Positions 59,113-59,930 of a DNA stretch of 64,000 nt are shown in pieces. The translations under genes and the position numbers were made by a program. How positions within the stretch are numbered: position 1 is the stretch's first letter; the number at the start of each line of letters is the position of its first letter. Where the stretch lies: IMG/VR virus record IMGVR_UViG_3300028591_000094, positions 1 to 64,000 of that record; one strand, 5' to 3'. The DNA comes from a virus (lineage: Duplodnaviria; Caudoviricetes). Under the pieces are notes generated by a model that had not been told where the DNA came from, did not search any database, and saw only the letters and a program-made list of their open reading frames with translations.

Positions 59113-59930
59113 TAGCGGGAGAGGGACTCGAACCCCCGACCTCAAGGTTATAACATTAATACTCCATTATCATATTCCCAATGGTGGTTAGGGCACAATC
59201 CTATGAGATTGCTAATAGAGTTTATCACGCTTACTGGTGTACAATCATCAAATTCAGAAACTGCTTTTATGTGAGCAACCTCAACATGATTTTTGTAACC
59301 GCAAATATGACAACTTGGATTTTCTGTGTTTTCAAAAAATACTTTTCTAGCATCTTTCTGTATTGCAGAACGAGCGGATTGCCAATTTTTCCTATTTTTG
59401 AACAACTCACCCTTCGTTTTGTTGTGAACATCATCAGTAACTGTAAGTTGTAGTTCCATACCTAACTTCGAACATCTTTCAGTTATTGCTTTTTTGGTGT
59501 TACTTGCAAGACATTTACACTTGTAACCAAGTTTTTTACCAATTTCTACCCAAGTTTTCGATGATTTTATAATATCAATGAACTCTTCATCACTTGGTGC
59601 GTTAACGAATGAAAACGTCTCAGTTTTCTTGTGTGAAAAATTTTCAATTTCGTTAATTTTTCTTCTTTGCGGTAACTTGATACCTAGTCGTTTTGCTCTT
59701 TTTTTTACAGCATTACCACTAATACCAAGTATTTTACCAATAGCGGAATAACTTTCATTCTGCTCTAAAATCATCTTTTTCAAAAATTCTTCTTCATTCA
59801 TAACAACTCTTTATTATAAATAGTTGTTACTTTTAAAAACGAACCTTCTTATTAAGAATAATCTTAGTTCGAATGGGTTTCGGCTTTTAAACCGTAAGAG
59901 CCTTGCGAGCTACCACTGCTCCATCCCGCA
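59113..59930 (-). tRNA. initiator-type tRNA-Met(CAU) split by a 746-nt HNH-coding insertion
   Basis: 5' half 59898-59930 ends CAAGGCTC; 3' half 59113-59151 begins ATAACCTTG; 1x72 mismatch. Confidence 0.85.
59148..59801 (-). CDS. HNH endonuclease inside tRNA-Met
   Basis: CHICGY...EVAHIK...N..SNLIGLCPNHH; stop codon lies in the tRNA 3' half. Confidence 0.9.
   Translation of the reverse strand: MNEEEFLKKMILEQNESYSAIGKILGISGNAVKKRAKRLGIKLPQRRKINEIENFSHKKTETFSFVNAPSDEEFIDIIKSSKTWVEIGKKLGYKCKCLASNTKKAITERCSKLGMELQLTVTDDVHNKTKGELFKNRKNWQSARSAIQKDARKVFFENTENPSCHICGYKNHVEVAHIKAVSEFDDCTPVSVINSISNLIGLCPNHHWEYDNGVLML

Follow-up and report, generated by a model that had tools for sequence, protein, structure and literature searches.

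To our knowledge, every well-studied homing endonuclease whose gene lies within a functional gene is carried by a self-splicing intron or intein, and the host therefore pays no price for it. The PD-(D/E)XK-type enzyme I-Ssp6803I, reportedly described by Bonocora and Shub in 2001, is said to be encoded in the intron of a cyanobacterial tRNA-fMet gene. The cyanobacterial tRNA-fMet intron is a group I intron of class fMet.2Ug and lies between U33 and C34 (Williams 2020, bioRxiv 10.1101/2020.01.27.920355). Here, we analyzed the first 64 kb (hereafter, the window) of a 168,082-bp virus contig from IMG/VR (IMGVR_UViG_3300028591_000094; 42% G+C; CheckV completeness ~45%), in which a tRNA-Met gene with the sequence marks of an initiator is interrupted between C34 and A35 by an insert that encodes an HNH endonuclease. 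Like the I-Ssp6803I intron, this insert places a mobile endonuclease gene in the anticodon loop of an initiator tRNA, and its predicted target is likewise the anticodon region of the uninterrupted gene. The cyanobacterial intron lies one bond upstream (U33|C34), has U at position −1 and a terminal G, and contains a full IC3 ribozyme together with its PD-(D/E)XK enzyme, whereas the window insert occupies C34|A35, has neither a core nor a 3' non-coding part, and encodes an HNH_2 enzyme.

Other systems offer partial parallels. Phage T5 carries the free-standing homing endonucleases F-TflI, F-TflII, and F-TflIV in its tRNA cluster. SegB of T4 is also a free-standing homing endonuclease of a phage tRNA cluster (PMC2330249). 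These genes share with the window insert the tRNA-array habitat and, as proposed for the insert, a spread by cutting the tRNA region of co-infecting relatives, and many members of the window HNH family are of the same free-standing type; however, SegB and the F-Tfl genes sit between tRNA genes and leave the tRNAs whole, whereas the window HNH gene sits inside an anticodon. In Aeromonas phage Aeh1, mobE is reported by Friedrich et al. in 2007 to split nrdA, a case in which a homing endonuclease gene also lies directly in a functional gene with no intron or intein around it. The pieces of the Aeh1 NrdA protein assemble and stay active, but a tRNA broken in its anticodon loop must be rejoined to decode. 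Archaeal and eukaryal protein-spliced tRNA introns lie mostly at 37/38 and are cut by EndA at a bulge-helix-bulge motif (PMC4090602). As in these introns and in split tRNAs, the window tRNA contains a ribozyme-free anticodon-loop insert that could be removed only by an endonuclease and a ligase such as RtcB, but neither a bulge-helix-bulge (by eye) nor EndA was found for the window. The host is bacterial, because the phage carries a tmRNA gene.

The split tRNA-Met gene lies within a long tRNA array on the minus strand of the contig. Its parts are the following.

59930-59898, minus strand: tRNA 5' half, U1-C34, 33 nt (from the sequence, ARAGORN with introns allowed, and the joined cloverleaf)
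59897-59152, minus strand: insert of 746 nt between C34 and A35 (from the sequence; same junction in all relatives)
59801-59148, minus strand: open reading frame (ORF) of an HNH homing endonuclease, 217 aa (Pfam PF13391 HNH_2, E 8.5e-9)
59151-59113, minus strand: tRNA 3' half, A35-A73, 39 nt (from the sequence, ARAGORN with introns allowed, and the joined cloverleaf)

The 5' half contains the acceptor 5' strand, the D arm, the 5' strand of the anticodon stem, and C32-U33-C34. The 3' half starts with A35-U36-A37-A38 and continues through the 3' strand of the anticodon stem, the variable loop, the T arm, and the acceptor 3' strand to the discriminator A, with no encoded CCA. Between them, the insert is made up of a 96-nt leader before the ATG and the 217-aa HNH ORF, with zero non-coding 3' part: the last sense codon crosses the 3' junction, and the TAA stop (59150-59148) is U36-A37-A38 of the tRNA itself. 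An earlier description of this locus, made from the DNA letters without database searches (the sequence-only reading), had claimed two intact halves that rejoin as C|AU, an insert that is mostly HNH ORF with its stop in the 3' half, and about 95 nt of leader; its coordinates and anatomy were confirmed, and the halves join into a clean cloverleaf. The split arrangement is not a product of chance, because the same arrangement recurs in many independent contigs.

Neither standard ARAGORN nor Rfam detected the split gene. When introns were allowed, ARAGORN returned c[59112,59930] with a 746-nt intron and named the tRNA Lys(CUU), because it placed the intron two bases further on. We rejected the Lys(CUU) identity, as the tRNA body is initiator-like and only C34|A35 yields one anticodon across alleles. 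The position of the junction is ambiguous from the window sequence alone, and C34|A35 is the sole junction that gives CAU in all ~16 aligned alleles. For annotation, standard tRNA finders overlook such genes, and intron-aware finders can misname them.

Joined at C34|A35, the halves form a 73-nt cloverleaf with anticodon CAU and the loop CUCAUAA, a loop found in all alleles. The 20 stem pairs other than 1:72 are all standard, and 1:72 is U×U in the window; among 16 alleles this position is mismatched in 13 and U:A in 2 (the misregistered row of L061 is uncounted). Position 11:24 is A:U in the window and in 16/16 alleles, that is, purine 11 paired with pyrimidine 24. The initiator G:C triplet at 29-31/39-41 is incomplete, with A29:U41, G30:C40, and G31:C39 in the window, and all three G:C pairs are present in just 3/16 alleles. 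By these sequence marks the interrupted gene is an initiator-type tRNA-Met: the 1:72 mismatch and A11:U24 are bacterial initiator marks, and two-thirds of the remaining one is in place. The sequence-only reading had seen no other Met tRNA in the window, and indeed no other CAU tRNA was called there or in the rest of the 168-kb contig (~45% of the genome). An uninterrupted anticodon-arm pattern occurs in 108 viral contigs, and some of these genes are 97% identical to the joined exons. In two loci with the 5' half present (L006, L007) the D arm is unusual, and the same D arm is found in some uninterrupted phage tRNA-Met genes.

The HNH protein belongs to a large family. It also matches PHROG HNH endonuclease families, and its C..CGY ... 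HxExAH ... CPNHHWE motifs are invariant in 25 homologues. Solved structures gave weak matches, the best being the TagI restriction endonuclease (E 0.03). The protein collection holds 452 homologues of the same length, of which P0001 (97% identity) and P0002 (91%) are nearest to the window protein. We fetched viral and metagenome loci for these homologues and found at least 20 distinct, diverged alleles with an HNH insert at the same tRNA-Met bond, in large phage contigs from rumen, lake, and gut samples (among them L001, L002, L005, L006, L048-L055, L057-L063, L066, and L068). Their inserts are 693-781 nt long, their HNH proteins range from 73% down to 50% identity to that of the window, and the ORF is in frame with the exon TAA in every one. 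Most of the inserts begin with AU, three with UU, and one with AC. Another ~30 homologues are encoded by free-standing genes, with an uninterrupted tRNA-Met(CAU) gene at a distance of a few to 200 nt. In a protein tree with rough support values, the interrupted forms make up one derived group nested among the free-standing ones, with a few reversions to the free-standing state. Set against the uninterrupted genes of the 108 contigs, the interrupted alleles amount to a presence/absence polymorphism of the HNH element at one conserved target site. The free-standing homologues beside tRNA-Met, with the interrupted forms nested among them, tie the family to tRNA-Met at the DNA level. The family is apparently undescribed as well as large and old; our literature search found no paper on an HNH cassette in the anticodon of an initiator tRNA-Met. 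The sequence-only reading had allowed for a recent insertion, which is not supported, given an old family with HNH identities of ~50%, a single occupied bond, and ORFs that all run in frame to the TAA.

The window contains a second HNH gene.

55367-55972, minus strand: free-standing HNH gene that shares the N-terminal helix-turn-helix domain and is preceded by a AATATTTATAATAAA motif

The N-terminal domain had been noted earlier as common to the two proteins, and this held: residues 2-58 and 7-60 are alike, with an overall BLASTP E value of 4e-12. Separately, a 59-aa ORF at 57649-57828 (minus strand) encodes a helix-turn-helix that resembles the N-terminal domain of both HNH proteins; this ORF, perhaps left over from another endonuclease cassette, overlaps a tRNA-Glu of unusual length (90 nt) at 57803-57892. 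In a relative, the HNH ORF of L068 has TGA at the invariant W of HHWEYDN, which suggests that this codon is read as Trp and thus that genetic code 4 is used.

The insert does not have the hallmarks of a group I intron. Position −1 is C34 in all alleles and U in none, and the insert ends in U in the window and in U or A in relatives, with a terminal G in no allele. Across the alleles, the leader shows no conserved pairing with either exon, including no guide pairing with GGCUC and no conserved P1, and no group I (IC3-type) core motif occurs at a consistent place in 16 alleles. These results, together with the missing 3' non-coding part, agree with the earlier statement that this is not a standard group I intron. 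The Rfam model Intron_gpI gave no match at E values up to 10 in the window and five relatives, and no ribozyme or intron family of Rfam matched the window, the relatives, or the 156-nt leader alone. This null carries little weight, as the model also misses a probable group I core in the tRNA-Leu insert of L130; because this positive control failed, the lack of room for a core is the stronger argument. By eye, the module built around the leader hairpin H1 (below) did not fit hammerhead, HDV-like, twister, or pistol cores. Judged from the aligned sequences, there is no catalytic RNA in the HNH insert.

The L130 locus provides an instructive comparison. In the complete relative G001, tRNA-Leu(UAA) (L130 3179-4044, minus strand) is split at the classical U34|A35 position by a 781-nt insert with a different HNH. 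That insert follows a U (−1), ends in G, and keeps ~210 nt downstream of its ORF, which contain a GTAGAGACTA-type stretch that we take to resemble an IC3 core. It is probably a group I intron, and the tRNA-Met element looks like the same layout without the core. In another complete relative, G003, a sub-threshold match to an HDV-like ribozyme (RF02682; 37 vs 44 bits, E ~0.002) at L006 3666-3729 (= L131 4519-4582) begins exactly at the 3' end of the interrupted tRNA-Met; such a position is reported for ribozymes of gut phages that process tRNA 3' ends.

We aligned the leaders of 13 alleles, referred to as class 1, in which ~35 positions are invariant. Four elements were recognized in the window leader.

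59881-59894, minus strand: hairpin H1, CGGU/GCCG with loop UUAAAA, beginning 3 nt after the 5' junction (RNAalifold, 13 alleles)
59840-59873, minus strand: inverted repeat TTCGAAC ... GGTTCG around a variable hairpin (both arms invariant in 13 alleles)
59829-59822 / 59808-59801, minus strand: start-codon hairpin TAACAACT / AGTTGTTA (minimum-free-energy fold)
59816-59824, minus strand: promoter-like motif ACTATTTAT inside the insert (conserved in class 1 alleles)

H1 shows covariation: pair 15:28 is AU in 7 and GC in 6 alleles, and two more pairs show changes in both strands. In a second class of alleles (L006, L060, L061, L066, L068), the place of H1 is taken by a longer hairpin that covaries too. 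The inverted-repeat region shows one-sided changes only and is followed by a T5 run at 59839-59835. As both of its arms are invariant, the repeat may function either in RNA or as a site in DNA. Its sequence is close to GGTTCGA in the T-arm DNA of the target, and a similar TTCGAAC/GTTCGAA repeat precedes a free-standing HNH gene beside tRNA-Arg in L361. The repeat is a putative operator for the shared N-terminal helix-turn-helix domain. A loose-pattern search for the repeat returned 116 chance matches, none with the full motif.

The elements near the start codon resemble a known expression control. In the T4 td intron, the start codon of I-TevI is sequestered by a hairpin in read-through transcripts, and an internal promoter provides transcripts for translation. 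The window insert has a comparable start hairpin, and transcripts from its predicted internal promoter would likewise lack the 5' arm of the hairpin; unlike the T4 case, the motif is ACTATTTAT and not TATAAATA, and the T4 host element is a working group I intron. Mobile elements of T4 are reviewed in PMC2988022. The hairpin folds as the sequence-only reading had described, pairing the A of the ATG and enclosing the Shine-Dalgarno-like AAAGAG, and equivalent start-codon hairpins are seen in relatives. The 5' arm overlaps ACTATTTAT, and thus transcripts started at the motif would have a free ATG, whereas the read-through pre-tRNA would not. The minus (coding) strand of the contig contains ACTATTTAT 7 times, with 2.2 occurrences expected; the motif stands 20-45 nt upstream of the other ORF starts that we inspected, has a close variant before the second HNH gene at 55972, and shows the same placement upstream of genes in G001. 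It behaves like a phage promoter, and its probable use as one fits the earlier proposal of a T4-like control around the enclosed TATTTAT element, with the layout of I-TevI. Because ACTATTTAT recurs upstream of genes and the repeat precedes a free-standing HNH gene, the leader elements are best read as expression features of the cassette rather than splice signals.

We favor, at about even confidence, a selfish HNH insertion without splicing, which would leave the tRNA split and non-decoding. The HNH protein would cut uninterrupted tRNA-Met genes of co-infecting phages, and the cassette would be copied into the cut gene during repair, so that it most likely spreads at the DNA level. The leader hairpin, inverted repeat, ACTATTTAT, and start-codon hairpin would serve as the cassette's own expression controls, with the start-codon hairpin masking the ATG in read-through transcripts. 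The insert would not remove itself, the split copy of the tRNA probably would not decode, and, because initiator tRNAs carried by phages are accessory, the phage could tolerate this loss. Continual movement of the element into undamaged genes would account for the intact look of the halves. Several features of the alleles are consistent with this. Anticodon-stem variants (CAAGG, UCAGG, UCGGG, and others) recur across different HNH clades, and L048 and L049 have near-identical HNH proteins but exons with a paired difference in the D stem, as expected if different intact alleles were entered repeatedly. It thus seems that the exons belong to newly invaded genes, and their intactness says little about later selection. 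In most alleles the insert opens with a repeat of AUA (A35-A37), which looks like a target duplication from DNA-level insertion. Damaged copies also exist: in L064, L073, and L079 both the halves and the HNH gene are damaged, L052 has an intact HNH gene and a 2-nt insertion in the acceptor 3' strand, and L065 and L078 show a 5' fragment, then the HNH gene, and then a complete tRNA-Met. A narrow search for an ORF-less derivative of the insert found none, and a strict junction pattern gave only two extra matches in viral contigs (L044, L047), both attributable to chance in GC-rich coding DNA.

A number of observations weigh against this account. Joined exons are free of stem mismatches in 12/16 interrupted genes, compared with 10/16 uninterrupted phage initiator tRNAs, the 1:72 mismatch and A11:U24 are retained, and many stem positions covary in the joined exons. 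The comparison of exons among relatives, put forward in the sequence-only reading as a check on whether the tRNA is rejoined, thus gave a divided answer: the joined exons are as clean as uninterrupted genes, frequent homing explains this equally well, and decayed copies exist. One bond has been occupied throughout ~50% protein divergence, a long persistence of the kind typically shown by introns and inteins that cost their host nothing. G001 and G003, both complete, have no initiator-type tRNA other than the interrupted one. The only tRNA-Arg(UCU) called in G003 is likewise interrupted, with intact halves. H1, at a constant distance of 3 nt from the junction, is a genuine covarying RNA hairpin for which this account offers no role. 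Finally, the contig encodes an RNA ligase and other RNA-repair proteins, the coordinates of which are given here with those of the ORF that adjoins the split tRNA.

19021-20460, minus strand: DUF2828/DUF7788 (TROVE-like) protein
22297-23130, minus strand: metallophosphoesterase
40682-41902, minus strand: RlaP nucleotidyltransferase
42146-43564, minus strand: CCA-adding enzyme
60371-60907: kinase-like P-loop AAA_28 ORF, adjoining the split tRNA
68574-70136 of the contig, minus strand: RNA ligase homologue (phrog_968, E 7.8e-34)

A tentative explanation of these observations, which we consider less probable than selfish insertion, would involve a new kind of intron. The insert would form a giant anticodon loop on an otherwise normally folded pre-tRNA, a protein endonuclease encoded by phage or host would cut after C34 and before A35, and a phage or host ATP-dependent ligase acting after end healing, or RtcB, would restore a working initiator tRNA. 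Exon quality equal to that of uninterrupted genes with initiator marks kept, strict site fidelity combined with long persistence, and the sole initiator gene of G001 and G003 all speak for such splicing, as do the repair genes: a search of the genome for RNA ligases, suggested in the sequence-only reading, turned up the phrog_968 homologue, and G001 encodes RtcB ~12 kb upstream of its interrupted gene, clustered with DUF2828 and RlaP. The tRNA-Arg(UCU) gene of G003 (L131 8531-9349; also L359, L360) extends the pattern. It is split in the same style, after C35, by a 746-nt insert that begins with the same AUACGG as the tRNA-Met insert, encodes an HNH resembling the second HNH of the window, and has a T-arm-like hairpin just before the 3' junction; no other tRNA-Arg(UCU) was called in the fetched tRNA-array regions of G003. 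One could accordingly propose, just as tentatively, a class of ribozyme-free, endonuclease-bearing introns in large phages (tRNA-Met and tRNA-Arg(UCU)) that are cut by protein and sealed by ligase. However, the Arg insert lies at 35|36, another loop position, and a simple ruler enzyme would not fit both sites. No candidate endonuclease was found, and the tRNA-splicing endonuclease family (PF01974) is absent from this contig, from the complete G001, and from G002, whereas the archaeal controls matched. We also saw no bulge-helix-bulge motif at the junctions by eye. There, only a 3-bp helix of A+1 U+2 A+3 with U-1 A35 U36 is possible, with no covariation, and no two 3-nt bulges flank a 4-bp helix. 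RtcB and T4-type Rnl1 were not found in the 168-kb contig (~45% of the genome), although the Rnl1 control matched nowhere. RNA-repair genes are common in large phages for other reasons, homing accounts for the intact exons, and we know of no protein-dependent tRNA splicing in bacteria.

Three further explanations received much lower weight. The halves could form a non-decoding, tRNA-shaped frame, such that RNase P, 3' processing, and CCA addition excise the HNH message from the array transcript and stabilize it. We regard this as very unlikely. The halves do still pair in variants that lack the usual anticodon loop and leader, a compensatory change in the T stem distinguishes L022 from L077, and the window has tRNA-like RNAs with large inserts replacing the anticodon arm; however, a frame would leave the retention of loop bases C32-U33-C34 and A35-A38 and of the initiator marks unexplained, and the HNH gene appears to have a promoter-like element of its own. 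Also very unlikely, in our view, is a new small self-cleaving ribozyme made of H1 and the conserved stretch that follows it, cutting after C34, with a second cut and a ligase finishing the reaction. The covariation of H1, the ~35 invariant leader positions, the fixed 3-nt distance from the junction, and a possible pseudoknot between the A-run of the H1 loop and the U-run after the repeat would suit such a module. Against these stand the lack of a match to any Rfam self-cleaving ribozyme or, by eye, to the hammerhead, HDV-like, and twister cores, a 3' junction conserved in A/U richness only, an allele (L059) without the 3' repeat arm and start hairpin, and the presence of the repeat upstream of a free-standing HNH gene. 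Least plausible of all is a group I intron of canonical type that is cryptic, with a core that overlaps the coding sequence. The Rfam model is insensitive, as the tRNA-Leu insert of G001 illustrates, and synonymous variation falls to 0.41-0.49 in the first and last ~25 codons from a mean of 0.60, a reduction at both ORF ends that is only mild and that we counted against rejoining. The missing U at −1, terminal G, conserved P1 pairing with the exon, and core motif all argue against such an intron, and the C-terminal coding sequence is common to free-standing homologues outside any intron.

An HNH family that sits in an anticodon with nothing to splice it out leaves two outcomes, a destructive drive or protein-based splicing, one of which must therefore hold. 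If selfish insertion without splicing is correct, a purely destructive gene drive that preys on phage initiator tRNA genes would have lasted, and diversified, in many phage lineages. If the insert is spliced, protein-based tRNA splicing would exist in bacteria or phages, built from the RNA-repair toolkit.

Additional RNAs and genes were recorded in the window and its relatives. A permuted (two-piece) tmRNA lies at 38896-39172 on the minus strand (Rfam tmRNA_permuted, 63.8 bits vs a gathering score of 47). ARAGORN called a split tRNA-Arg with a 10-nt intron at 39110-39215, which overlaps the permuted tmRNA and is not intron-like, and its split-tRNA calls at 38048-38653 and 58153-58321 do not look like introns either. 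The tRNA array contains a TnpB / IS605 OrfB-type gene at 51186-52442 (minus strand) with Cas12f1-like TNB, OrfB_IS605, and helix-turn-helix domains and with ACTATTTAT ~120 nt upstream, as well as a second transposase-like ORF at 46596-48311 (minus strand). Among the relatives, G003 has a tRNA with anticodon CUA, an amber suppressor (L006 2760-2832), and in G001 two adjacent ORFs (L133 4189-5486) encode the tyrosyl-tRNA synthetase in two parts. A tRNA of the window at 61018-61090 (minus strand) was left unnamed by ARAGORN, which drew a 6-nt anticodon loop; a 7-nt reading, CUUAUCG, would make it tRNA-Ile(UAU). Finally, tRNA-like RNAs at 56477-56594 and 58153-58321 (both minus strand) have good acceptor and T arms with 45-95 extra nt at or beside the anticodon arm, and one of them holds an additional hairpin of T-arm type; neither resembles an intron-bearing tRNA. 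As Y-RNA-like (YrlA-type) molecules, they may be partners of the DUF2828/TROVE-like protein.

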